Positions 34,072-49,780 of a DNA stretch of 64,000 nt are shown here, one piece after another. Source of the DNA: Clostridiaceae bacterium BRH_c20a (GTDB lineage Bacteria > Bacillota > Peptococcia > Peptococcales > BICA1-8); NCBI GenBank assembly GCA_000961765.1, contig LADT01000019.1, forward strand, positions 7,110-71,109. The letters are read 5' to 3'. Under the pieces are notes generated by a model. That model worked only from the letters and a program-made list of their open reading frames with translations, was not told the DNA's origin and made no database searches. The number at the start of each line of letters is the position of its first letter. The first letter of the stretch is position 1. The translations under genes were made by a program, and so were the position numbers.

Positions 34072-34638
34072 GTGGATAAGGAAAGAATTGAGAAGGCTGT
34101 AAAGGAAATATTACTGGCCATTGGAGAAGACCCAAATAGAGAAGGATTGTTAAATACACCTAAAAGGATCGCTAGTATGTATGAAGAAATATTTGCGGGA
34201 TTAGAAGACGACCCAGGAAAACATCTGGAGATATATTTTGAGGAAGAAAACCATGAGGAACTAGTCTTAGTTAAAGACATCCCTTTCCATAGTATGTGTG
34301 AGCATCACCTTGTTCCCTTTTTTGGTAAATGCCATGTAGGCTATATTCCTAAAGGAGGCAAATTAACCGGTTTAAGTAAATTGGCCAGGGTAGTTGAAAT
34401 GGTAGCTCGCAGACCACAGCTCCAGGAACGATTAACTTGTACAATTGCCGATACCATTGTGGACAAGCTTGCACCTCATGGTGTAATTGTAGTTGTTGAG
34501 GCAGAGCATATGTGCATGACTATGCGGGGTGTTAAAAAACCTGGGTCTAAGACACTGACCTCAGCAGTACGGGGAATATTTAAAAAAGATGCAAAATCCA
34601 GAGCGGAAGCACTGGCGTTGATTAATTTTGGAAGATAG
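34072..34638 (+). CDS. folE: GTP cyclohydrolase I
   Basis: 188 aa, GTG start; [32 protein letters not shown]. Confidence 0.95.
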
Positions 34639-34649
34639 TAACCCCTGCA

Positions 34650-34682
34650 GGTTAAGGTTAAGGCTGAGGCTGAGGTTAAGAA
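34650..34682. repeat. short hexamer array between folE and folP
   Basis: GGTTAAGGTTAAGGCTGAGGCTGAGGTTAAGAA; followed by TGTCAGACGCA / TGTCAAGACAC words (34722-34764). Confidence 0.9.
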
Positions 34683-34764
34683 GAAAACAATATAGATTTC
34701 GCTGTGATGACACCAAAGGATTGTCAGACGCATAATTTTTACCCTTAAGGAGTTGTCAAGACAC

Positions 34765-35601
34765 ATGTATTTCAATAGATTTGTCAATATGAAGTGTGGA
34801 AATACTACGCTAAATTTGGGATCTAAAACCTATATCATGGGTATCTTAAATGTTACTCCTGATTCTTTTTCTGATGGCGGTGACTTCGCTGATGTAGAGA
34901 AGGCTGTAGCCCATGCTCATATAATGGTTCGGGAAGGGGCGGACATTATTGACATCGGCGGTGAATCGACCAGGCCGGGGTTTGAGGAAATTAGCGCTGA
35001 GGAAGAGCTGGAAAGGGTTTTGCCAGTACTAAAAAGGCTGATAAAGGAGATTGATGTGCCTATATCTGTTGACACCTATAAAGCAGAGGTGGCTAGAGAG
35101 GTTTTGTCGATAGGTGCTAATATAGTCAATGATCAATGGGGTTTAAAAAAAGACCCCAGTCTAGCTGAGGTAATAGCCCAATGGCAGGTTCCGGCCATAT
35201 TTATGCACAATCAGGCTGGAATTGAATATCAAAATGATATTTTAGAAGAAATTAAACTTTCCTTGCAAGAATCAATAGATATTGCTTTAGATGCAGGTGT
35301 CAGGAAGGAAAATATTATCCTAGATCCGGGGATTGGTTTTGGAAAAAACCCGGAGCAGAATATGGTTGTGATGGCCAGGCTCCATGAGCTAAATGAGTTA
35401 GGTTATCCAATACTCTTGGGTACTTCCCGCAAGTCTATGCTAGGAAAAATTTTAGATTTGCCTCCAAAAGATAGAATTGAGGGAACTGTGGCTACTACTG
35501 TGATGGGAATTATGCAGGGAATAGATATTGTGCGGGTACATGACATAAAAGAGAATTGGCGGGCAGCTAAGGTTACTGACGCCATAATAAGAAAGCATTG
35601 A
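34765..35601 (+). CDS. folP: dihydropteroate synthase
   Basis: MGILNVTPDSFSDGG, DIGGESTRPG, DPGIGFGK; start ambiguous (TTG 34753, ATG 34765 or ATG 34789). Confidence 0.93.
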   Translation: MYFNRFVNMKCGNTTLNLGSKTYIMGILNVTPDSFSDGGDFADVEKAVAHAHIMVREGADIIDIGGESTRPGFEEISAEEELERVLPVLKRLIKEIDVPISVDTYKAEVAREVLSIGANIVNDQWGLKKDPSLAEVIAQWQVPAIFMHNQAGIEYQNDILEEIKLSLQESIDIALDAGVRKENIILDPGIGFGKNPEQNMVVMARLHELNELGYPILLGTSRKSMLGKILDLPPKDRIEGTVATTVMGIMQGIDIVRVHDIKENWRAAKVTDAIIRKH

Positions 35602-35610
35602 GGTAAAAAT

Positions 35611-35973
35611 ATGGATAAGATTTTTCTGAAAAATTTAGCTTTTTTTGGATTCCATGGAGTCTTGCAGGAAGAAAAAAATCTTGGGCAAAAATTTTTTGTT
35701 GATGTTGAATTAAGCTTGGACTTAAAAGAGGCCGGAGAAAGTGATAATGTCCAAGATACTGTAAGCTATGCTGATATATATCAATTAGTTAAAGATGTAG
35801 TATCAGACAATCGATTTAATTTGATTGAAGCTTTAGCGGAAAACATTGCCTTTGAAATTTTAAAATATGAAGAAATAACGGAAACAGTTGTCAGGGTACG
35901 CAAACCGGAGGCGCCTGTTGCTGGTATATTTGATTATTTTGGTGTGGAAATAAGGAGAAAAAGAAATGGCTAA
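35611..35973 (+). CDS. folB: dihydroneopterin aldolase
   Basis: 120 aa; LAFFGFHGVLQEEKNLGQKFFVDVEL, VSYADIY. Confidence 0.9.
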   Translation: MDKIFLKNLAFFGFHGVLQEEKNLGQKFFVDVELSLDLKEAGESDNVQDTVSYADIYQLVKDVVSDNRFNLIEALAENIAFEILKYEEITETVVRVRKPEAPVAGIFDYFGVEIRRKRNG

Positions 35974-36442
35974 GGCTTATTTAGGACTTGGCAGCAATCT
36001 AGGTGATAAAAAAACCAATGTAACAACTGCTTTAGAAATGCTTTATAAGAACCCGTTAATAGAAGTACTCAAAATTTCCTCCTTTTATGAAACGGAGCCT
36101 ATAGGCTTTAAGGAACAGGACTGGTTTTTAAATGTTGTTGTGAAGGTAGAGACTTTAGTAGAGCCATATAAGCTGCTTTCCTTTTGTCAGGCTATTGAAG
36201 ATCACCTTCAAAGAAAAAGACTTATAAGATGGGGCCCTAGAACTATGGATGTTGATGTCTTGCTTTATGAAAATTTTTCTTCTGAAGACCCCATATTAAC
36301 GATACCCCACCCGAGAATGACAGAACGGGCCTTTGTTTTAGTGCCCTTAGAGGAAATTGAACCAGATTTAGAAATAAAAGGGCAAAGAATTGGAGAGTTT
36401 TTAAATAAGTTAGAAGATGCTCATATAAAAAGAGTTGATTAA
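35966..36442 (+). CDS. folK: 2-amino-4-hydroxy-6-hydroxymethyldihydropteridine pyrophosphokinase
   Basis: 158 aa; YLGLGSNLGD, RWGPRTMDVDVLLY, HPRMTERAFVLVPL; overlaps folB by 8 nt. Confidence 0.93.
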   Translation: MAKAYLGLGSNLGDKKTNVTTALEMLYKNPLIEVLKISSFYETEPIGFKEQDWFLNVVVKVETLVEPYKLLSFCQAIEDHLQRKRLIRWGPRTMDVDVLLYENFSSEDPILTIPHPRMTERAFVLVPLEEIEPDLEIKGQRIGEFLNKLEDAHIKRVD

Positions 36443-38027: not shown

Positions 38028-39419
38028 GTGGATACTCAAGTTACTTTAGGATCATTGCACTTTATTTATTTTTCAGTAGTAATTTTAGTTATTGGTGTTA
38101 TGGTAGCCAGAAGAGATACTGTGCTGCCCTGTATTATTGGTTTATTTGTTATTGGCCTTGCCGCCAAAGGTTCATTGGTGGGTGCAGTCCAGGTTATGTT
38201 TAATGCTTTAATGGCCGCCGGTGGAGAATTTTTAGGACTTATTGTTGTTATTTCCCTTGTAGTTGGAATGAGTAAAGCCATGGCTGATTCAGGAACCGAT
38301 TACCTTATTATGCGCCCTGCAGCCAAAATTATGGTTAATAGAAATATTGCCTTTTTCGTGACGGGTATTGCGATGCTTATTGTTTCTTGGTTTGTATGGC
38401 CTTCTCCTGCAGTTGCACTGATAGGTGCATTATTACTGCCTGTTGCTCTTAGAGCTGGTTTACCTGCTATTGGTGCGGCAGTTGCAATGAACATTTTTGG
38501 TCATGGAATTGGTTTATCCAGTGACTGGATTATCCAAGGTGCTCCTGGAATTACGGCAAGTGCAGCTGGCCTCGCCGATGCCACTAAGGTAACCTATCCA
38601 GGTGCTCCCCTTTACTTAGTTATGGCTGTTGTAACTGTTGCAGTTGCCTTCTATATGTTAAGAAAAGATTTAAATACAAATGCCCATCTTTATCAAACTG
38701 AACTGGCCGGTGCTACTAAGGATGATGAGAATGAAAAACGTAAATTTAGCACTAGTTCTTATATATTTGCCGTATTAATACCACTTGTTTTTGCCATCGA
38801 TGTGGTAGCAATGTTAATGTTAGACCTCAAAGGCGGAGATGCTACAGCTTTAATTGGTGGTACTGCCCTAGCAATAACAGCAGTTTTAGCTATAGCTCAG
38901 TTTAAAGGTGAATCTTTAGAGAAGGTTACTGACTATGTCCGAGACGGCTTTATGTTTGGTATCAAGATATTTGCCCCTGTTATTGTTATTGGTGCCTTCT
39001 TCTTCTTAGGTAGTGAAGGAACAGCAAAGGCAATACTTGGGGAAAATGCAACTGGACTGTTAACAGATTTAGGAAGCTATTTAGCTCAGAATGCTCCACT
39101 AAGTAAAGCGCCAGTGGCATTTATAACCATAATAATTGGCGGTATTACTGGTCTTGATGGATCCGGATTTTCCGGTTTGCCATTAGTGGGCTCTCTAGCT
39201 CAAACCTTTGGTACTGCTATCGATGGTAATGTAGGAGTTCTAGCTGCCCTTGGACAAATTAGTTCCGTTTGGGTAGGCGGAGGTACTATTATTCCTTGGG
39301 GCTTAATCCCTGTAGCTGCTATTTGTGGTGTTGAGCCTATGGAATTAGCCCGTCGAAACTTTATCCCGGTTATGATTGGTTTTCTAGTCACAACCATATT
39401 TGCAATCTTCTTAATCTAA
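38028..39419 (+). CDS. multi-pass permease (ion-transporter-superfamily-like), substrate unknown
   Basis: 463 aa, GTG start with SD AAGGGGG; about 12 hydrophobic segments and one central hydrophilic loop. Confidence 0.8.
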   Translation: MDTQVTLGSLHFIYFSVVILVIGVMVARRDTVLPCIIGLFVIGLAAKGSLVGAVQVMFNALMAAGGEFLGLIVVISLVVGMSKAMADSGTDYLIMRPAAKIMVNRNIAFFVTGIAMLIVSWFVWPSPAVALIGALLLPVALRAGLPAIGAAVAMNIFGHGIGLSSDWIIQGAPGITASAAGLADATKVTYPGAPLYLVMAVVTVAVAFYMLRKDLNTNAHLYQTELAGATKDDENEKRKFSTSSYIFAVLIPLVFAIDVVAMLMLDLKGGDATALIGGTALAITAVLAIAQFKGESLEKVTDYVRDGFMFGIKIFAPVIVIGAFFFLGSEGTAKAILGENATGLLTDLGSYLAQNAPLSKAPVAFITIIIGGITGLDGSGFSGLPLVGSLAQTFGTAIDGNVGVLAALGQISSVWVGGGTIIPWGLIPVAAICGVEPMELARRNFIPVMIGFLVTTIFAIFLI

Positions 39420-39482: not shown

Positions 39483-40217
39483 ATGTGGAGAGTGGGTGTT
39501 TTGCAAACACCACGGGAAAGTCATAGATTTCATATTCTAGAAGTAATTGAAAAAAGTGAAGCGCCCTTAGGTGCCAACCAGATAAAAAAGGAACTGTCCA
39601 GTTTAGGGTTAAATATTAGTGAAGCAACTGTTGGCAGGGTTTTATTCGGTCTGGATCAGGAGACCCTAACTAAAAAAGAGGGCTTTAAAGGCAGGATTTT
39701 AACAGAACAAGGGCAAAATGCTTTACGGGAAATGCGTATTCAGCGGGAAAGAAAAGAATATGGTGAAGAGTTTTTTAAAGTTTTAGATAGTACCTCTGAA
39801 GCCGAATTAGTCGAGATTCTAGTTGCCAGGAGAGTTATTGAGAGTCAATTAGCTAGGATGGCAGCATTGCATATTACACCAGAAATTGCCCAGGAAATGC
39901 AAGATACCATCGATCGACAGGCAAAGTATAGTAAAAAGGGTATTGCGGCCGAATATGATGTCCAGTTTCATAAGCTTATTTCCCGGTCAGCAGGTAATAA
40001 AGTTCTTGATGCTATGCTGGATCTAATCAGGCAAGATGGGCAACTCACTCCTGCTTTAGAGTATATTCGCAAAAAGGTTAAAAGTAGTATAATTGTGGAC
40101 CATAAGAAGATTATGGAGGCCATTATTAATAAAGATCCTAATACCGCTGAAAAGGCAATGATTGAGCATATGGATAATTTAATTCGAGATGTAAATAAAT
40201 ACTGGGGTAAGATGTAA
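39483..40217 (+). CDS. winged-helix plus FCD (FadR C-terminal type) domain transcriptional regulator
   Basis: 244 aa; the C-terminal half (LVARRVIESQLARMAAL..FHKLISRSAGNKVL..DHKKIMEAI) fits the FCD domain; start may be TTG 39501. Confidence 0.7.
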   Translation: MWRVGVLQTPRESHRFHILEVIEKSEAPLGANQIKKELSSLGLNISEATVGRVLFGLDQETLTKKEGFKGRILTEQGQNALREMRIQRERKEYGEEFFKVLDSTSEAELVEILVARRVIESQLARMAALHITPEIAQEMQDTIDRQAKYSKKGIAAEYDVQFHKLISRSAGNKVLDAMLDLIRQDGQLTPALEYIRKKVKSSIIVDHKKIMEAIINKDPNTAEKAMIEHMDNLIRDVNKYWGKM

Positions 40218-40424: not shown

Positions 40425-40865
40425 ATGGTAGCAATAGATCCTTATAAAGCAGGAATGTTTAAAACTGATCCTTATGTGGTTAAAAGAAGTATAAAGGGTG
40501 AATTGGTAGTTGTTTTGGATGGTTATATGGAAAATAGAGGGCTTAAGCTTATCGCACCTATTTCCCGCTGTATTTTAAAAAATGAAATCCATGAATTGCT
40601 TTTTACCGATGAAATTGATGCAGGTCCAGGAATGAGCGTTGACAAAATTTCCTACCTAGGTTTTTTTGAAGTTGAACAGGGTAGTGTGATGGTGTCTGGT
40701 GATGAAGTATTCTTAAACAATCAACTTATCGGTCATATTGCCGGTTTTGATGAAACCCATATGCCAAATCATCTTAATATTATTATGAAGCGCCAAAATA
40801 GGTTAACGGGAGTAGAATTGGGTTGTAGTATTGGTGATACAATTACATTTCAAAAGCCTAAATAA
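40425..40865 (+). CDS. small protein of unknown function (faint glucitol-IIA-like beta-barrel pattern)
   Basis: 146 aa; GHIAGFDETHMPNHLNIIM..IGDTITF loosely recalls SrlB-type GHxTLxFDG..PG..L.F. Confidence 0.55.
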   Translation: MVAIDPYKAGMFKTDPYVVKRSIKGELVVVLDGYMENRGLKLIAPISRCILKNEIHELLFTDEIDAGPGMSVDKISYLGFFEVEQGSVMVSGDEVFLNNQLIGHIAGFDETHMPNHLNIIMKRQNRLTGVELGCSIGDTITFQKPK

Positions 40866-40966
40866 TAAAGTATATATTTTTTACTAGTTCATTGATAATA
40901 ATTATCGTTATCATTGTTCAGTATTTAAAAGTTGAATATTTAAATATTCTGAAAGGAGGTGTAATA

Positions 40967-41428
40967 GTGAGTTTTGAGGAACGAATTAAAGAATTGGGAC
41001 TTGAGTTGCCGGAAGCACCTAAACCGGTAGCAGCATATGTACCTGCTGTTTTAGTTGATAAATATATCTATACTTCTGGGCAAATTCCTTTTGTTAATGG
41101 TGAATTAAAGTTTAAAGGAAAAATAGGCCAAGAGCTAAACGAGCAAGAAGGATATGAAGCTGCAAAGGTTTGTGCTTTAAACTGTTTAAGTGTAATAAAA
41201 AGTGTTATAGGTGATTTAGACAAAATAGACCGGGTTATAAAAGTAAATGGCTTTGTAGCCAGTGCGGCAGGTTTTAATATGCAGCCTAAGGTAATAAATG
41301 GTGCATCAGAGTTAATAGGTCAAATATTTGGTGATCAAGGACAGCATGCCCGCGCAGCGGTAGGAGTAAATGAGCTGCCTTTAGATTCTGCCTGTGAGGT
41401 TGAGATGATAGTAAAGATTAAAGGTTAA
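40967..41428 (+). CDS. RidA/YjgF-family enamine/imine deaminase
   Basis: 154 aa from GTG 40967 (SD AAGGAGG 7 nt upstream); YTSGQIPF, ARAAVGVNELPLDSACEVEMIV. Confidence 0.85.
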   Translation: MSFEERIKELGLELPEAPKPVAAYVPAVLVDKYIYTSGQIPFVNGELKFKGKIGQELNEQEGYEAAKVCALNCLSVIKSVIGDLDKIDRVIKVNGFVASAAGFNMQPKVINGASELIGQIFGDQGQHARAAVGVNELPLDSACEVEMIVKIKG

Positions 41429-41611: not shown

Positions 41612-43072
41612 ATGAGTCCAAAATATAAATTTCAAATGTATAAAGAGCTGCATGCCAAAACTGGGGAGATATATGCCGATGCTGCTAAAGCTGCAGACGA
41701 AATAGGTATACCTAAAGATATTAGAGGAACTTTTGGTTTAACTGGTGCTATCTCAGGTTGTCCCGCACCTTTAAGAAGGGATATTTTAGAGGCAGGGGAA
41801 AAAGGTGCTGTTGAAGTAATACCTCTTGCTAAGTTAATGGACGAGATTAGGGAAGTTGTAAAAGATGTCTATGGCGATGAGTGGGAAGCTGCTGCTACAA
41901 GTACTTGTGAAGCTACTCTTTGGACTTCCTTTGATGCGTTGTTTACACCTCCCATGCAGGGCAGGGGTGATAATTACAGAGCCAGGTACATAGCTCCCTA
42001 TGAAAAGCATTTACATCACCAGGGTGGTTATGGTCGACCATTTCCCGGAAAATATAAGGATATGTTTGCTGACAGAGGCTCAACAGCTGGAGAACTAGGC
42101 TTCCACGGCAAAAGGCAAAATAATCTTGATGCGGTATTTGTTCCTTTAGAAGGAGCTAAATATGAAGTTCACGGTATTAAGCAGTGGCCAGTACCTTTGC
42201 TGTCTGAAGTTGATCCCGAAGCTTCCATTGAAAGTATTGCTTTACATGCGGAGATTCACGAAGCTATGCTTACAGGCTTCACCTCCTTAGGCTATCCATC
42301 CCCAGGTTATGGATATAGTGCTCAGGATGAAGAGGGTACTCCTTTACTGTGCAAATATATTGCTGAGTTAGCTCATTCCTACAATGTTCCTTATGTTATA
42401 GATAATGCTTGGGGATTGCCCTTTGTTGGTATTAATCCTGCTAAAATTGGCTGTGATGTAATTACATATAGTATGGATAAGGCTACAGGCGCTGCCACTA
42501 GCGGTTTGATTATTGGTAAAGAAGAACCAATGGTACAAATTCGCAGAGCTTTAGGCATGCATGGTGACCGTTGGGGAACCCCATCCTCCTATGGCAAAGC
42601 TGCTTATGTAACCTTTGACCCAGGTAAAGAGGCTCTCTTAACTCAGCTCCAGGCTCTGAAGGTATTAAGAGATACACCAGAAGTATTGACAAAACCCGTT
42701 GATGACCTATATGAAATAGTTGTAGAGGAATTTAACAATATTCCGGCGAAGTTTAAAGACGGAATTAAAATTACTAAGGTTTATAATTCTACTGCAATTG
42801 AAGTTAACTATGAAGGTACTTGGAAAAATGGACAAATGGGTATTCCTATTTTCTCTATTGAAGATATGTATTCAGGAACAAACCTCTTACAGACTGGTAT
42901 GACTAAATTCGGTGTTATACCAACAATTGCCTATGATGCAAACATCTATATTTCACCTGGTTTAGGTACCTGTGATGAAGAAGGACAGTTAATTCCTGAA
43001 AAGACTCGTTATGCTGTTAAAGCTTTAGTTAAGCTAATTGAAATAGTTTGCAAACATGCAGGAGTACTTTAA
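41612..43072 (+). CDS. SelA-like fold-type-I PLP-dependent enzyme
   Basis: 486 aa; VIDNAWG then ITYSMDKATGAATSGLIIGKEE (Lys290, nt 42479-42481) parallels the SelA SGDKLLGGPQAGIIVGKKE Schiff-base region. Confidence 0.7.
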   Translation: MSPKYKFQMYKELHAKTGEIYADAAKAADEIGIPKDIRGTFGLTGAISGCPAPLRRDILEAGEKGAVEVIPLAKLMDEIREVVKDVYGDEWEAAATSTCEATLWTSFDALFTPPMQGRGDNYRARYIAPYEKHLHHQGGYGRPFPGKYKDMFADRGSTAGELGFHGKRQNNLDAVFVPLEGAKYEVHGIKQWPVPLLSEVDPEASIESIALHAEIHEAMLTGFTSLGYPSPGYGYSAQDEEGTPLLCKYIAELAHSYNVPYVIDNAWGLPFVGINPAKIGCDVITYSMDKATGAATSGLIIGKEEPMVQIRRALGMHGDRWGTPSSYGKAAYVTFDPGKEALLTQLQALKVLRDTPEVLTKPVDDLYEIVVEEFNNIPAKFKDGIKITKVYNSTAIEVNYEGTWKNGQMGIPIFSIEDMYSGTNLLQTGMTKFGVIPTIAYDANIYISPGLGTCDEEGQLIPEKTRYAVKALVKLIEIVCKHAGVL

Positions 43073-43356: not shown

Positions 43357-44637
43357 ATGCCGAGAGTTGTGATTGTAGGTGGCGGTTGGTCCGGTGTTGC
43401 TGCTGGTCTAGCTGCTAGGAAAGCAGGTGCTGAAGTATTAGTTTTGGAAAGGGCAGATATGCTTTTAGGGACCGGCTTAGTCGGTGGAATAATGAGAAAT
43501 AATGGCCGTTTCGTGGCTACTGAAGAATCAATTGCTATGGGTGCCCATGAACTTTTTGATGCTACAGAAGAAACAGCTCGCCACAAAAACATGGAATTTC
43601 CGGGGCATAAACATGCTACTCTTTATGATGTAGCAAAAATAGAACCGGCTGTAAGAAAAAAACTTACTGAAGCTGGCGTGGAATTTAAACTTAAGCAAAG
43701 AGTAAAAGATGTAAAAATGAATGGTACTGCCATTACTGCTGTGATTGATGAACAAGGCAGAGAATATGAGGCAGATGTATTTGTTGAAACTACTGGTACT
43801 GCCGGACCTCAAGGTAACTGCTTGAAATACGGCAATGGTTGTGCTATGTGTATATTGCGCTGTCCAACCTTTGGTCCTAGAATTGCTTTAGCTACTAAGT
43901 GTGGAGTAGAAGAATTCATGGGCAAAAAGGCTGATGGTACCTTTGGAGCCATGAGTGGTTCCTGCAAATTGCATATGGAATCCCTTTCTGAAGAGATTCA
44001 AAAACAGCTGTACACTAAGGGTGTTGCAGTAGTGCCTATTCCTAGGGAGCTGCAAAAGGAAGGGGCCTTAGAGTCTAAAGCCTGCCAGCAGTATGCTTTA
44101 GCTGAATTTAAAGAAAATGTTATTCTTTTAGATACAGGTCATGCAAAATTAATGTCTCCTTATTATCCTTTGGATACTCTACGGAGAATTCCCGGTTTTG
44201 AAAACGCCCGTTATGAGGATCCTTATTCCGGCGGTATAGGTAATTCCATGCGTTATTTGGCGTTATCCCCACGGGATAATTTCCTGAAGACTAAAGGCTT
44301 AGATAATCTTTTCTGTGGTGGAGAAAAGGCTGGTCTCTTAGTAGGTCACACCGAGGCTATTGTTACCGGTAGCTTAGCCGGTCATAATGCAGTACGTTAT
44401 GCTTCAAAAAAAGAGTTAGTAGAGATTCCGACTTCTTTAGCTATTGGTGATGCTATTAATTATGTCAAAGAGCAAATGACCACGGAAGAAGGCCTTACTA
44501 AGAAATATACCTTCTCCGGTTCAGTATACTTTGAGCGCATGAGGGAGCTAGGTCTTTATACAACTGATGTGGATGCTATTCATAAGCGGGTAGCTGAAGC
44601 TGGTATGACTGGACTATATAACAAAAAAGTGAACTAA
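43357..44637 (+). CDS. FAD-dependent oxidoreductase, GidA/TrmFO-like
   Basis: 426 aa; VVIVGGGWSGVAAGLAARKAG dinucleotide fold; C-terminal FCGGEKAGLLVGHTEAIVTGSLAGHNA resembles the GidA-type AGQ..G..GY.EA..G..AG. Confidence 0.75.
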   Translation: MPRVVIVGGGWSGVAAGLAARKAGAEVLVLERADMLLGTGLVGGIMRNNGRFVATEESIAMGAHELFDATEETARHKNMEFPGHKHATLYDVAKIEPAVRKKLTEAGVEFKLKQRVKDVKMNGTAITAVIDEQGREYEADVFVETTGTAGPQGNCLKYGNGCAMCILRCPTFGPRIALATKCGVEEFMGKKADGTFGAMSGSCKLHMESLSEEIQKQLYTKGVAVVPIPRELQKEGALESKACQQYALAEFKENVILLDTGHAKLMSPYYPLDTLRRIPGFENARYEDPYSGGIGNSMRYLALSPRDNFLKTKGLDNLFCGGEKAGLLVGHTEAIVTGSLAGHNAVRYASKKELVEIPTSLAIGDAINYVKEQMTTEEGLTKKYTFSGSVYFERMRELGLYTTDVDAIHKRVAEAGMTGLYNKKVN

Positions 44638-44811: not shown

Positions 44812-45063
44812 ATGACTGTGACTGATGCTTTAAAGAGAGTAATAGATGCTTTAGACGTAGAAACTTTCTTAGTCTGTGAGAGTGAAGAAGAGGGTAAAAA
44901 GTTAGCATTAGCTATGATGAAAAACCTGGGCTTTAAGGATGTAGATCTGGTATTTATTGAATTTATTGGTTCGGGAGCAAGAATTAGGGCTAGGGCCTAT
45001 ATGCACCGACCAGGGGATCAATATGGGTGGTTATTTGCTGAGGAGGTAAAAGGTAATGACTAA
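44812..45063 (+). CDS. 83-aa protein of unknown function, translationally coupled to the mutase
   Basis: ORF with SD TGGGGG; its stop overlaps the next start in ATGACTAA (8-nt overlap). Confidence 0.65.
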   Translation: MTVTDALKRVIDALDVETFLVCESEEEGKKLALAMMKNLGFKDVDLVFIEFIGSGARIRARAYMHRPGDQYGWLFAEEVKGND

Positions 45064-46873
45064 AAAGGTTTTGTTATCCCCTTTAGACCCCGTTCATGAT
45101 ATAGGATTAAAAATGATAAAGAGGGGTCTTAATGAAGCCGGTCTAGAAACAAAATTACTGCCTCCTGATACTCCGGCGGAAGAAATTATTCGTATTTGTA
45201 TGGAAGGAAGCTTTGATACCCTGCTTTTAAGCCGCACTTTAGGTTATGGAGTTGCTGAATTGTTAGCCCGCTTTGTAGATTTGGCGGATGCCGCAGGCTT
45301 GAGAGATAATGTCCGTATAGGTATTGGTGGTATGGCTGTTCGGCCGGAAATTGCAGCAGAATTAGGCTTTGATGCTGGATTTGGCCCGGGAACTACAGTG
45401 GAGGAAGCGGTTGCTTTTGTGGAGGGGAGGGAATATAGTCCCCAAGAAAATGAAATAAAAAAGGAAAAGGTGGATATTGCCTCCCCTTATACGTACCACT
45501 ATAAGAATCAAAAGATAGGTAGTTTATTAGAAAAAATAACCATGCAGATTATAGCCTGGGCTGCTAATAAAACATCTCCGGGGGTAGAAAGGGCTAAACT
45601 TAGAGAAAATGATTGGGATTATCAGGCCTTTCTAAAGAAAGAGGATGACAGTAAGTTTTATAAACACTATGCCCAATTATGTGATCAAATTCCAAAGGAT
45701 TTTTATCTCAAGGGAGTAATGCATCCTAAAACTAGAGAGCTCTCTAAGGATGAACTTATCAGTCTAAATACCTATATTAGTAATATGCAAAAACAGATGA
45801 AGGTTAAAAAGCTGCAGCATACTAAGAAGCTGCCTATAGTTTGGAACCAGTATGGCACGGGATGTCCCTTTATGGATATTGCTCATGTTAAGGCTAGTGA
45901 AGGATGGGGTGCTGACGGTGTAGTTCATTTTGACCCTTCATGGGGGGCTAGAACCGAAGGCTTTTTAAACGGTAACCTCACTCATCAGGAGGATGGTACA
46001 GTTATCACTCCTAATAATTTATATAGAATTCATAGGATGTTGGAAAAATCCACTTTATGGCAGGTAAGGGCTCACCGAGGTTTAAATACAGCTGAAACCG
46101 TTGTTTTGGCCGGTAAAATAGGTGCAGACTTAACTAAGATTAATATCTGTTATGGGTCGTTGGCGGCCGGTACAGATCCTGCCCGTTTAACTATAGATGC
46201 TTTTCATGCCATCAAATATGCTGCTAAATATAAAATGCCCTTTGATGTTGTTACAAATGAGGAATTAACCGGAGTTCCAGCTTATAAAGCTTTTGCCGGG
46301 ATGCTGATAGTAGCAGATCTGGCGGTAAGATTAGGAGCTAAGCCTATACTGCAGCCTTTATTTGCCTTCTCACCGGAGGTAATGGTAAGTGGACAGATGG
46401 ATGATAACTATATTGATTTTAATGCCGCCAAAATATATGCATTGAGAAGTATAGTTGATGCTCCAATTTGGCCAGGTGCACCTATCGGGTTTTTAACCCA
46501 GACCGAAGATAGGGTGCAATCCTCTCTATCTACAGCTCTGCATGCACTTTTAGCGACAAGCTTAGGTGTTGATGCAATATCCATTGCTTCTGCTGATGAA
46601 GCATACTCAGGAGGACCTATAAGTATACCTTCTAAAATTGATACCTTAAGAGGTGTGGAGGAAAGCTTCAGATTCTTAGGTCTTGCAGGAATAAAACCTA
46701 CAGAAAAGGCTCAAATCTGGCAGGAACAGATGGTTATAGGGATTGAAAATGTTCTTTCTCAGATTGCAGAACAGGGGGACTTCGTTCAATCATTATATGA
46801 TGGTGTCTTAGGAAGCAAAGAAGAAGGGGCCTTCCCTGGTAGGGCCGGATATAATACCGTTCGGGAAGAATAA
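45056..46873 (+). CDS. cobalamin-binding-domain fusion protein, putative B12-dependent mutase
   Basis: 605 aa. Residues 1-125 parallel glutamate mutase S (KKVLLSPLDPVHDIGLKMI; LLLSRTLGYG; GIGGMAV; GFGPGTTVEEAVAFV). In the ~470-aa C-terminal domain, WGADGVVHFDPSWGAR, WQVRAHRGLNT and SADEAYSGGPISIPS faintly parallel MutE segments. Confidence 0.65.
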   Translation: MTKKVLLSPLDPVHDIGLKMIKRGLNEAGLETKLLPPDTPAEEIIRICMEGSFDTLLLSRTLGYGVAELLARFVDLADAAGLRDNVRIGIGGMAVRPEIAAELGFDAGFGPGTTVEEAVAFVEGREYSPQENEIKKEKVDIASPYTYHYKNQKIGSLLEKITMQIIAWAANKTSPGVERAKLRENDWDYQAFLKKEDDSKFYKHYAQLCDQIPKDFYLKGVMHPKTRELSKDELISLNTYISNMQKQMKVKKLQHTKKLPIVWNQYGTGCPFMDIAHVKASEGWGADGVVHFDPSWGARTEGFLNGNLTHQEDGTVITPNNLYRIHRMLEKSTLWQVRAHRGLNTAETVVLAGKIGADLTKINICYGSLAAGTDPARLTIDAFHAIKYAAKYKMPFDVVTNEELTGVPAYKAFAGMLIVADLAVRLGAKPILQPLFAFSPEVMVSGQMDDNYIDFNAAKIYALRSIVDAPIWPGAPIGFLTQTEDRVQSSLSTALHALLATSLGVDAISIASADEAYSGGPISIPSKIDTLRGVEESFRFLGLAGIKPTEKAQIWQEQMVIGIENVLSQIAEQGDFVQSLYDGVLGSKEEGAFPGRAGYNTVREE

Positions 46874-46874
46874 T

Positions 46875-47894
46875 ATGGCCGTTATACTAGGTATTGCGGG
46901 AACAGCTAAAAATACAGGCAAAACCACTACTACCAAAGCGATTATGGACCAAGTACAACAGGATAAGAACAGGTTATTGGGCTTAACTAGCATTGGGTAT
47001 GACGGTGAGGATATGGATAATATTACCGGATTACCCAAGCCAAAAATTGAGGTCTGGCCCGGGGCACTTGTAGCTGTAGCTGAGCGAAGTCTTGAGGTTA
47101 GTTCAGCTCAAATTCAATTGCTGGAAAAAACCGATATAGCTACACCCTTGGGTAAAATAATTCTGGGAAAAGTTATTAAAAGTGGCACACTTCTTATCGC
47201 TGGACCAAATAAGAGTAAGGAACTGCGCCGGATTTTACCTCTCTTACAGCATTATGGGGCCAATTTTATAATTGTTGACGGAGCTTTAAACCGGATAGCG
47301 CCCATGGTTGAGGTAAATAGTTTAATACTAGCTACTGGAGCGGCTAAAACATCTAACCTAACTGATCTTGCTTGGGAAACAAAACATCTTGTGGAAATCC
47401 TCCAATACCCAGTTTTCCCTAAAACTGAGAATATGGTCAATGTGGATTCGATACTGGACATCCAAGCTGCTCAAAGGCTAACTGCTATTCTATTAAATAA
47501 TCAAGGAGTAGTAATTAATGGTGTAATCAGCTCACAGGGCCTTGAGTACTTAATTCAGGCAGGGGAAGAGCTAAAGGGAAAAATGCTGATTTTACCTGAT
47601 GCCATAAAGCTTTTAGTCTGTGGTGAGGTTAGACATATTTATAACCTTCTTACTCGCTTAAAAAATTTTGGTCTGGAAATAGGGGTAAAAAAAGAAGTTC
47701 GGGTGACGGCTCTTACAGTAAACCCCTATTACCCCCAATTCCGCTTTTCCTCTAATGATTATCAAGCAGCATATGTGGACCAGGGACTACTCTATGAAAG
47801 CATCACGAACAGTGTCAATATCCCCGTATTTGATATAGTTGAAGAAGGGGGCCATAAACTCTACGAAGTAATAGTGGAAAAAGAAATATATTGA
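46875..47894 (+). CDS. BioD/CobQ/CbiA-type P-loop ATPase-like protein
   Basis: 339 aa; starts 1 nt after the mutase stop; GIAGTAKNTGKTTT fits GTxxxxGK[ST] of dethiobiotin synthetase/CobQ; FIIVDGALN parallels the EGAGG strand. Confidence 0.55.
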   Translation: MAVILGIAGTAKNTGKTTTTKAIMDQVQQDKNRLLGLTSIGYDGEDMDNITGLPKPKIEVWPGALVAVAERSLEVSSAQIQLLEKTDIATPLGKIILGKVIKSGTLLIAGPNKSKELRRILPLLQHYGANFIIVDGALNRIAPMVEVNSLILATGAAKTSNLTDLAWETKHLVEILQYPVFPKTENMVNVDSILDIQAAQRLTAILLNNQGVVINGVISSQGLEYLIQAGEELKGKMLILPDAIKLLVCGEVRHIYNLLTRLKNFGLEIGVKKEVRVTALTVNPYYPQFRFSSNDYQAAYVDQGLLYESITNSVNIPVFDIVEEGGHKLYEVIVEKEIY

Positions 47895-47913: not shown

Positions 47914-47937
47914 AAAAAACGCCCTAGGGCGTTTTTT
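47914..47937. terminator. bidirectional terminator
   Basis: AAAAAACGCCC-TA-GGGCGTTTTTT between convergent genes; overlaps the minus-strand stop codon. Confidence 0.85.
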
Positions 47938-48751
47938 AAGTTGCATCATTATTTACGCAAATAAAGGTTTTACGGTTTTTCTCCTGCCAGACATAAGAAA
48001 GAAGTTTTTTCTGAAGTGCCGGTGTATTTATACTGATTATAGTATCATAATGGAGTTCTTTAATCTCGGTTAGCTTTTCGAAAGAAATTACTTTATCGGC
48101 AGCGGTAGACAATAACTGATTAACGATTTTATGAGAAAAAGGGCCTATTACTTTAACTGTTTTACCTTTTGCTTTCAACTCATCAATTAAGGATTTTACC
48201 ATCCCCAGCCAAAAACCATCAACACAGACAATTACATCCTGCATCTTACCCCAAGGCAGCTCTGGTAATGCTGGTCCTTGAGGTTTTAATTCAAGTATTG
48301 TTCCTTTTGCTACCAGAGGGCCGTATTTCAAAGGAATCTCATAATTAGTATCCATAATGATAAGAGAAATCAAGTTTTGCTCTGGTACAACTTTTGAAAT
48401 TACACCGGACATAGCAATGGTTTTATTAAAATTTTGGGTAGTAATTTTGACAAATTGAAAGGCTTGAATATTTTGCAAATGACTAGGAATAAAGCAGACA
48501 AGCTTGAGAAAATCCTTTTCACTTATTTTCTGCAGTACTTCAATCTTATCGTTAGAAGTTTTGGATAATTGAGAACCATTGGTTAGATAGGACTGATAAA
48601 TACACATTCCTGCCCAGTTTAGGCTGCAATCACAGCTTTGGCCATGATTTAGAATATTGCATACGGGGCAGTCCCCAGTAACAGCAGCAGCACAGGGGCA
48701 TTTCTCAGTTGCTGCATCCAGGCAGGCCTTTTCTACAGGTAAAGTATTCAT
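47936..48751 (-). CDS. Cys-rich protein with possible ferredoxin-reductase-like C-terminal part
   Basis: 271 aa; 8 Cys within residues 10-50 (CLDAATEKCPCAAAVTGDCPVCNILNHGQSCDCSLNWAGMC); remainder weakly PyrK/FNR-like. Confidence 0.5.
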   Translation of the reverse strand: MNTLPVEKACLDAATEKCPCAAAVTGDCPVCNILNHGQSCDCSLNWAGMCIYQSYLTNGSQLSKTSNDKIEVLQKISEKDFLKLVCFIPSHLQNIQAFQFVKITTQNFNKTIAMSGVISKVVPEQNLISLIIMDTNYEIPLKYGPLVAKGTILELKPQGPALPELPWGKMQDVIVCVDGFWLGMVKSLIDELKAKGKTVKVIGPFSHKIVNQLLSTAADKVISFEKLTEIKELHYDTIISINTPALQKKLLSYVWQEKNRKTFICVNNDAT

Positions 48752-49285: not shown

Positions 49286-49780
49286 TTAAAATAAAATATT
49301 ATTGATGACTCCGCAGGATAGCCTTTTTCCTGCATCTCCGGCAGGCTGAGTGCGGTAATCATCGGGATTTTGATGAACGATTACTGCTTTGCCAATGATA
49401 TCACGGACGCTAAATTTGTTGGTATAAAAGCTAATAAAAGCATAGCCATTATTAGAAAATAAAACAGGAAAGTCTCCGGCATGATTTCCATGGGGTTGAT
49501 TAAACGGGTTCCAGTGCCCGCCGGCAGCCTGAAAGGGATTATCCGGGTCGCCTATTAAGCAGATCCCGTTTTCATGAATATGAAAACCGTGGGGACCTAC
49601 AGGGTCACCATTGTTTTGGGCAGGTTGGTATGGGGGAAGGCCGAATACCTCTGTATAAACCAAAACTCCGCCTATTACATCCTGAAAGATTACTGTGCCT
49701 CTAATCTGAGGAGCAAGGGGCCCTCCCCTGAGATTTGCTCTTGCTATATTTGTTAAGTATATAATTATTCCTCCTTTCAC
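49286..49780 (-). CDS. sodC: Cu/Zn superoxide dismutase family protein
   Basis: GPHGFHIHENGIC, GGHWNP, HGNHAGDFP, VIVHQNPDDY..GDAGKRLSCGVI; start codon uncertain (see findings). Confidence 0.9.
   Translation of the reverse strand: MKGGIIIYLTNIARANLRGGPLAPQIRGTVIFQDVIGGVLVYTEVFGLPPYQPAQNNGDPVGPHGFHIHENGICLIGDPDNPFQAAGGHWNPFNQPHGNHAGDFPVLFSNNGYAFISFYTNKFSVRDIIGKAVIVHQNPDDYRTQPAGDAGKRLSCGVINNILF

Follow-up and report, generated by a model that had tools for sequence, protein, structure and literature searches.

The forward strand of a 64,000 nt window of the metagenome-assembled genome 'Clostridiaceae bacterium BRH_c20a' contains an open reading frame (ORF) at 45056-46873 that encodes a 605 amino acid protein with an N-terminal B12-binding domain (the window is the whole stretch of DNA that was analysed, and coordinates are window positions unless another locus is named). 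Judged from its sequence, this protein is probably an uncharacterised adenosylcobalamin (AdoCbl) radical isomerase of the KamDE/OraSE lineage, with its parts rearranged and a chemistry that probably does not depend on pyridoxal 5'-phosphate (PLP). Together with the genes of its cluster it looks like a domain-permuted relative of the aminomutases. A fuller reading is offered more tentatively, as an account that is plausible and falls a little short of probable: the protein would have branched off from the aminomutases as a PLP-independent enzyme with a re-registered Asp/His loop, would catalyse an AdoCbl-dependent radical rearrangement outside the dozen or so known ones, and would thereby perform the committed step of an undescribed seven-gene catabolism of a small amino or carboxylic acid in strictly anaerobic Bacillota. 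In the database record the protein bears just the name 'cobalamin-binding protein' and the neighbouring genes are labelled hypothetical, and no paper on the family was found in the literature, in which subscription journals were partially covered.

The gene starts with an ATG located 9 nt 3' of the Shine-Dalgarno sequence GAGGAGG. This ATG falls within the final codons of the 83 amino acid ORF (44812-45063, +) that precedes it, giving a start/stop overlap of 8 nt, and a gene for a KamB-like protein begins 1 nt past the stop codon; the three genes are thus coupled in translation. Conservation was counted over 154 distinct full-length homologues, the most divergent of which has 49.5% identity. 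All of the full-length homologues are 600–623 residues long and consist of an N-terminal B12 domain followed by approximately 470 further residues. The preliminary description of the window had proposed that a B12 domain and a large catalytic domain are naturally fused here, and the retention of both the fusion and the length in every full-length homologue confirms this and rules out an artefact of gene calling. The protein contains four cysteines (C49, C209, C270 and C365), none of them arranged in the CxxxCxxC motif of B12-dependent radical S-adenosylmethionine enzymes, which was not found in the sequence.

Residues 1–125 (45056-45430, +) were assigned as a cobalamin-binding Rossmann domain, presumably of the base-off/His-on type, using Pfam, hhalign and Foldseek. 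Residues 5–119 matched the Pfam B12-binding family PF02310 with an E-value of 2.8e-11 and 43.8 bits against a cut-off of 32.1; the protein is not a flavodoxin. A search with a family profile gave E-values of 1.4e-17 for KamE, 1.5e-12 for OraE and approximately 1e-3 for GlmS. The NCBIfam models gave the same ranking with all scores under their cut-offs: Lys_5_6_beta (41 bits, cut-off 280) and ornith_mutase_E (33.9, cut-off 800) came first, both matches being confined to the B12 domain, and the equivalog models of the methylaspartate mutase S subunit came last (NF002612, 19.8 bits against 110; TIGR01501, 17.3 against 135.8). Alignment with the Rossmann domain of OraE using hhalign had a probability of 97–99%, and Foldseek gave 31–33% identity to KamE, with which the domain has the motif ELGFDAGFGPGT in common; the sequence match to KamE includes ELG(F/Y)DAGFGPGT. 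On these sequence comparisons the B12 domain is nearest to the B12 domains of the aminomutases KamE and OraE, and not to GlmS. Strand 3 is followed by S59-x-T-L62, in which S59 is found in 148 and L62 in 149 of the 154 homologues, while G91-G92 after strand 4 is present in all of them. The role of the leucine after strand 3 of the B12 Rossmann domain has been described previously (PMC13331322).

The loop carrying the predicted lower-ligand histidine is P9-L-D11-P12-V-H14-D15-I-G17-L-K19 (45080-45112, +). The segment D11-P12-V13-H14-D15-I16-G17, encoded by nt 45086-45106, has the non-canonical register DxxHxxG that the preliminary description had read there, and the full pattern P-x-D-P-V-H-D-x-G-x-K is invariant: P9, D11, P12, V13, H14, D15 and K19 are each conserved in 100% of the homologues, the most divergent member included. 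The canonical D-x-H-x-x-G is not matched, as Pro12 occupies the position of the Asp and an Asp is found at His-3, with the His and Gly themselves in register. The corresponding loop of OraE is canonical (G-E-D-E-H-S-V-G), and hhalign placed Pro12 at the canonical Asp position with the loop one residue shorter than that of OraE. His14 is presumed to be the lower axial cobalt ligand in base-off/His-on binding.

The C-terminal 470 or so residues gave no match to any Pfam or NCBIfam family, Pfam being empty even at E ≤ 10, which agrees with the earlier observation that strings resembling the glutamate mutase E subunit are faint in this part. When 1.84 billion representative proteins were searched with the C-terminal domain using phmmer, nothing was returned beyond members of its own family and their fragments. 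The AlphaFold2 model (predicted local distance difference test score, pLDDT, 77; predicted template modelling score, pTM, 0.79) consisted of the Rossmann domain, a helical region, an eight-fold β/α barrel and C-terminal helices. The linker and helical region, residues 126–250 (45431-45805, +), is the least conserved part of the protein with 10% of columns invariant; the model places helices at 152–247, and hhalign paired residues 176–245 with the N-terminal region 21–92 of OraE. Residues 251–545 (45806-46690, +) were assigned from the eight-fold pattern and Foldseek as a (β/α)8 barrel of the AdoCbl-isomerase type, presumed to hold the substrate and adenosyl site. Residues 546–605 and the stop codon (46691-46873, +) make up the C-terminal helices, which end in a tail of the pattern G-A-[YF]-P-G-R-x-G, and this part aligns collinearly with OraE 387–425; both HMMER and hhalign paired this tail with 'GGYF..GFFVDSGYYPERNGDG' of OraE.

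In the barrel 45% of columns show an invariance of at least 98% across the homologues, and the invariant residues include R299, R338, H340, R341, K361, Y366, R377, N401, E402/E403 and D514/E515, the last pair encoded at nt 46595-46600. The invariant positions are concentrated at the C-terminal ends of the strands. This conservation, and an operon that also encodes enzymes and a protein resembling a reactivase, make it barely conceivable that the protein binds B12 without catalysis, for instance as a sensor or cofactor store, a proposal favoured by nothing except the lack of an assigned function.

When the structural model was compared with the Protein Data Bank (PDB) using Foldseek, the top three matches were KamD chains, with E-values of 1e-13 to 5e-12 and TM-scores of 0.59–0.62 (1xrs_A, E 1.1e-13 and TM 0.62; 8t0v_A; 9q1a_C). 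These were followed by IcmF (E 2e-9), OraE (2e-8), GlmE (4.7e-8, TM 0.54) and then methylmalonyl-CoA mutase. Methyltransferase barrels of the MttB, MtaB or pterin-binding kinds were absent from the leading matches of the barrel. This bears on the alternative that the protein combines a corrinoid domain with a methyltransferase barrel and transfers methyl groups rather than generating radicals. Many of the hosts are acetogens rich in corrinoid methyl-transfer systems, and the protein does match MtgC, MtbC and other cognate corrinoid proteins weakly (19–32 bits), along with 1y80 and 4jgi. These scores are far under the cut-offs of 215–370 bits, the barrel matches AdoCbl isomerases instead, and the cluster has a KamB-like gene and no RamA-type activase, so that a methyl-transfer function is highly improbable.

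The preliminary description had placed the protein next to glutamate mutase. The general assignment as an AdoCbl isomerase stands, while that of the nearest relative does not. A fused relative of GlmS and GlmE that performs a methylaspartate-type rearrangement of the carbon skeleton would be compatible with the missing PLP site described below, with the significant fold match to GlmE and with the weak sequence match of GlmS; the many invariant arginines may also resemble the arginine claw of GlmE. At each level of comparison, however, the closer relatives are KamD, OraE, KamE and KamB. KamD precedes both OraE and GlmE in the fold comparison, the GlmS models score only 17–20 bits against cut-offs of 110–136, and no GlmE sequence signal was obtained at E ≤ 10 either in Pfam or from GlmE chains of the PDB with the family profile. 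The genes next to the B12 gene are KamB-like and OAM_dimer-like, and no methylaspartate ammonia-lyase or MutL gene was present in the cluster of the window or among the called genes of three related loci. A methylaspartate-type mutase is on this evidence very unlikely. Direct differences from GlmS/GlmE are the separate subunits and canonical DxHxxG of that enzyme, its partner genes MutL and methylaspartase, and its greater distance than the aminomutases in both sequence and fold; shared features are a base-off/His-on Rossmann domain with a barrel, the Glu after β8 and, as suggested here, PLP-independence. The earlier expectation that the specificity differs from that of the known enzymes agrees with our conclusion that it must.

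Residue equivalences in the barrel were derived with four MAFFT strategies (L-, G- and E-INS-i among them), which agreed strand for strand, and with profile-profile alignment in hhalign, using full OraE genes from metagenome loci and KamD residues taken from a PDB alignment. An OraE gene on one long contig (L006, 5030-8282) is split into several called fragments, probably through frameshift errors, which explains the many 'partial' OraE proteins of the protein collection. In PDB entry 3kow the residues His225, Arg297 and Glu338 of the ornithine aminomutase (OAM) literature have chain indices 222, 294 and 335, while Ser162 and Tyr187 agree, so that published residue numbers call for caution. 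With hhalign, residues 176–605 aligned collinearly with OraE 21–425 at borderline E-values of 6e-4 to 3e-3. Some pairings were stable across methods: strands β1/β2 ('…PIVWNQYGTG…W-GADGVVHFD' with 'PVITTEIASG…WHGADHIMVIRT'), the β8 loop ('IASADEAYSGG…' with 'ITPDEGR…') and the tail ('G-A-[YF]-P-G-R-x-G' with 'GYYPERNG'). A different register against OraE proposed by HMMER, in which the PLP site seemed to be kept (NQYGTGC and HFDPSW against Y160/S162 and H182/Y187), was rejected because it pairs β1/β2 of the query with β3/β4 of OraE and misfits both the count of eight strands and the segment lengths.

The PLP ligands of lysine 5,6-aminomutase (LAM) are Lys144β, Arg184, Gly187-Ser189, Tyr236, Ser238, Tyr263, Arg268 and Asn299, and the counterparts in OAM include Lys629 and Ser162 (PMC3958899, PMC9105233). 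The PLP lysine of both aminomutases (Lys144β, Lys629) is located on the Rossmann domain, 11 residues past the His. In OraE, Lys629 lies within a four-residue 'IDIK' insertion that hhalign showed to be missing from the B12 protein family, and the nearest lysine of the BRH_c20a protein, K22, is variable (A in 60, R in 47 and K in 29 of the 154 homologues). In both MAFFT and hhalign alignments Arg184 of LAM corresponds to Asp293 and Gly187-Gln188-Ser189 to Trp296-Gly297-Ala298, so that the two methods concur on the phosphate loop after β2 (D293 to A298); the middle strands are placed differently. Ser238, the ligand of the PLP N1, falls on Arg341 with MAFFT or on a variable S/A/C site with hhalign, and Arg268 falls on Ala371 or Asp397, respectively. 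The stacking Tyr263 and the phenol-binding Asn299 are kept as Y366 and N401, in both cases with MAFFT only. The adenosyl-contacting glutamate that promotes Co-C cleavage, Glu338 in OAM and Glu411 in LAM (PMC4413051), aligned after β8 with the invariant E515 in all alignments. It is the same residue that the preliminary description had reached by pairing 'SADEAYSGG' with 'TPHEAIG' of GlmE. From these alignments, which are of low confidence, the adenosyl machinery seems to have been preserved and the PLP site lost. Because the lysine, the phosphate ligands and the N1 ligand are all missing, the chemistry is probably PLP-independent.

The principal alternative is a true aminomutase for a new substrate that depends on both PLP and AdoCbl, with PLP bound non-covalently or through a lysine of the barrel such as K361 and its phosphate held by Gly-rich loops after β7 and β8. 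Such an enzyme would account for the nearest relatives of both domains being aminomutases, for the KamB-like neighbour and for Y366 and N401 in the MAFFT register. It is opposed by the absence of the lysine-bearing insertion and the variability of K22, by the replacement of Arg184, Ser189, Arg268 and the N1 serine, and by the absence of any PF09043 match in the protein at E ≤ 10, and we regard it as unlikely.

Several observations nevertheless weigh against a PLP-independent isomerase of aminomutase descent. The Gly-rich segments WPGAP after β7 and SGGP, an insertion after β8, resemble phosphate loops as read from the sequence and could form a phosphate site for PLP or a phosphorylated substrate, and the AlphaFold2 model is of low confidence precisely at these active-site loops (477–488 and 513–522). 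The co-conserved PLP enzyme and Rid protein, together with the flavoprotein, suit the handling of amines and imines and are equally apt for a true aminomutase. The sequence likeness between the barrel and the aminomutases is borderline, with hhalign probabilities of 10–28%, and the register of β3-β6 differs between MAFFT and hhalign, which makes the residue equivalences there provisional. A KamC or MutL-type partner is also absent from the cluster.

The rearrangement of parts is clearest when the protein is set beside the known systems. KamD is closest to its barrel in fold and KamE to its B12 domain in sequence, and KamD/KamE also share with it an adjacent KamB-type gene and the glutamate E411α, equivalent to E515. 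They are built from an α chain containing the barrel and a β chain containing the dimerisation and Rossmann domains, whereas here the Rossmann domain and, after it, the barrel belong to a single chain. Compared with KamD/KamE the BRH_c20a protein lacks an equivalent of Lys144β and a PF09043 signal, its PLP phosphate and N1 ligands are replaced, its His loop reads DxxHxxG and its cluster is without KamC. OraS/OraE likewise possess a barrel, a dimerisation-type domain and a Rossmann domain, are collinear with the protein over the barrel and C-terminal tail, and have the gene for a small extra subunit directly upstream. OraE begins with the barrel, continues with the dimerisation domain and closes with the Rossmann domain, in contrast to a separate dimerisation-like protein followed by Rossmann domain, linker and barrel in BRH_c20a; the 'IDIK' loop is deleted, and the OraE substrate ligands Glu81, His182 and Arg297 are replaced by Gln265, Lys361 and Trp472. 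No KamB-like gene or other gene of the cluster was found near the OraE loci.

The preliminary description had treated an N-terminal B12 domain ahead of the barrel as unprecedented, which was too strong, as IcmF carries its B12 domain at residues 53–143 of 1113 ahead of the barrel and gives a long collinear Foldseek alignment. Unlike the BRH_c20a protein, IcmF has a MeaB-type G-protein domain as an insertion, and its barrel is of the CoA-ester type (PF01642); for the BRH_c20a protein Pfam gave no match to PF01642, and no gene for a MeaB-type G-protein chaperone is present in the cluster. The enzyme 2-methyleneglutarate mutase, a single chain of approximately 614 residues, was considered and provisionally set aside: the genes of the nicotinate pathway are absent, and the C-terminal part of the BRH_c20a protein has no NCBIfam or Pfam match.

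The gene neighbourhood was examined in 49 related loci with full 10-kb flanks. The 83 amino acid ORF, a candidate small subunit, lies directly upstream of the B12 gene in all 49. It matched OAM_dimer (PF16554) weakly (E 0.18, positions 19–53 on model positions 19–53), and the best hhalign match of its 32-sequence profile was OraE 513–582, the domain directly before the Rossmann domain in OraE (E 1.1e-3, probability 21%; next match 0.38). The resemblance to an aminomutase dimerisation domain is weak but consistent. Downstream of the B12 gene is the 339-residue P-loop protein (GIAGTAKNTGKTT; 46875-47894, +; 40 of the 49 loci), which passes the NCBIfam model NF052386 reactivase_KamB with 216.1 bits against a cut-off of 210 and is presumed from this match to be a cofactor chaperone or reactivase subunit.

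Upstream lie the genes of the putative pathway. An orphan 486-residue PLP enzyme of fold type I, with an SMDK lysine motif (41612-43072, +), is present in 48 of the 49 loci. Residues around 242–314 match Aminotran_5, Cys_Met_Meta_PP and SelA/DgaE weakly, and the best folds for its AlphaFold2 model are SepCysS, SufS, SelA and aminotransferases, a generic fold-type-I result that does not narrow the substrate. More than 1000 proteins belong to its family, almost all of them with a hypothetical annotation, and its distribution tracks that of the B12 gene. The 426-residue GIDA/TrmFO-like FAD oxidoreductase (43357-44637, +; PF01134, E 1.9e-32) is found at 44 loci. It resembles GIDA, TrmFO and MnmG in the N-terminal as well as the C-terminal part, a fold that is unusual in pathways of small molecules, and its C-x6-C-x2-C-x3-C motif may bind an Fe-S cluster. 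A Rid-family imine/enamine deaminase (40892-41428, +; PF14588, E 6e-26; 38 loci), the real start of which is probably near 40964, matches the PA0814 imine deaminase type (9bk9, E 8e-36).

The DUF6917 protein (40425-40865, +; PF21891, E 3e-48), for which no PDB relative was found, is encoded at 45 loci and also beside the most divergent member of the B12 family. Preceding it are a GntR/FCD-type regulator with FCD and winged-helix domains (39483-40217, +), also encoded at loci L002 and L166, and a 463-residue polytopic membrane protein presumed to be the substrate transporter (38028-39419, +; 21 of the 49 loci), the Zhaonella homologue of which has a weak CitMHS match. The order of the cluster genes varies between lineages, and the conservation of the gene set despite this shuffling argues for a functional module. 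Of the cluster, the small ORF, the FCD regulator, DUF6917 and the PLP enzyme are retained at the locus of the most divergent member. The genes flanking the cluster in the window are unrelated to it (a folate operon and assorted others). An Rfam scan of the window gave no riboswitch or other match.

A mechanism can be proposed for a PLP-independent isomerase with this arrangement. The dimerisation-type domain would have become the separate 83-residue protein, and the Rossmann domain would have moved to the N-terminus, joined through the helical linker to the barrel. The Rossmann domain would bind the cobamide base-off with His14 of the invariant loop as lower ligand, and binding of the substrate in the barrel would trigger Co-C homolysis, with E515 holding the adenosyl ribose. 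The 5'-deoxyadenosyl radical would then abstract a hydrogen atom and a 1,2-rearrangement or rearrangement-elimination would follow, in a PLP-independent chemistry closer in style to glutamate mutase or an eliminase. The KamB-like P-loop protein may exchange damaged cofactor. A small carboxylate or amino acid, imported by the transporter of the cluster, would serve as the substrate, the isomerase would open the catabolic pathway, and the PLP enzyme, flavoprotein and Rid deaminase could then strip nitrogen from its product.

No more than about a dozen AdoCbl-dependent reactions have been described so far, and the discovery of a new family is a rare event. The protein would represent a third architecture for aminomutase-type machinery, reached by permutation at the level of genes, in which the PLP lysine 'lock', considered to control when radicals form in KamDE and OraSE, has been lost. 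The invariant variant of DxHxxG bears on how the Asp-His pair tunes the cobalt. The partner set of orphan PLP enzyme, DUF6917, flavoprotein and Rid protein is tightly conserved, and solving the B12 family would give functions to several orphan families together.

Relatives of the B12 protein are encoded at 135 places among 185,579 species genomes, and the hosts are nearly all strictly anaerobic Bacillota, including Sporomusa, Pelosinus, Desulfosporosinus, Desulfotomaculum, heliobacteria, Tepidanaerobacter and Thermovenabulum. With the function proposed here, acetogens, sulfate reducers and heliobacteria would gain a further trait that depends on B12, a point of relevance to models of how anaerobic communities rely on cobamides. 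Some genomes contain the complete cluster twice: in Desulfosporosinus sp. OT the copies are on one contig approximately 17 kb apart (L111 and L120), and Peptococcaceae BICA1-8 also has two complete copies (L089 and L090). The paired copies hint at two related substrates.

A MutL-family gene (PF13941) is located 9 kb upstream of the most divergent member (L166, 1-1154) with unrelated genes between, a probably coincidental arrangement; MutL is the reactivase type of glutamate mutase. In the window, the folate operon just upstream of the cluster (34072-36442, +) encodes GTP cyclohydrolase I, dihydropteroate synthase, FolB and HPPK. On the other side, a 271-residue ORF with a Cys-rich N-terminus (47936-48751, −) is convergent on the cluster, weakly matches sulfide/dihydroorotate-dehydrogenase-like FAD/NAD proteins and has a homologue beside the B12 gene in 5 of the 49 loci. 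Beyond it lies a Cu/Zn superoxide dismutase gene (49286-49780, −), in what is otherwise the genome context of a strict anaerobe.

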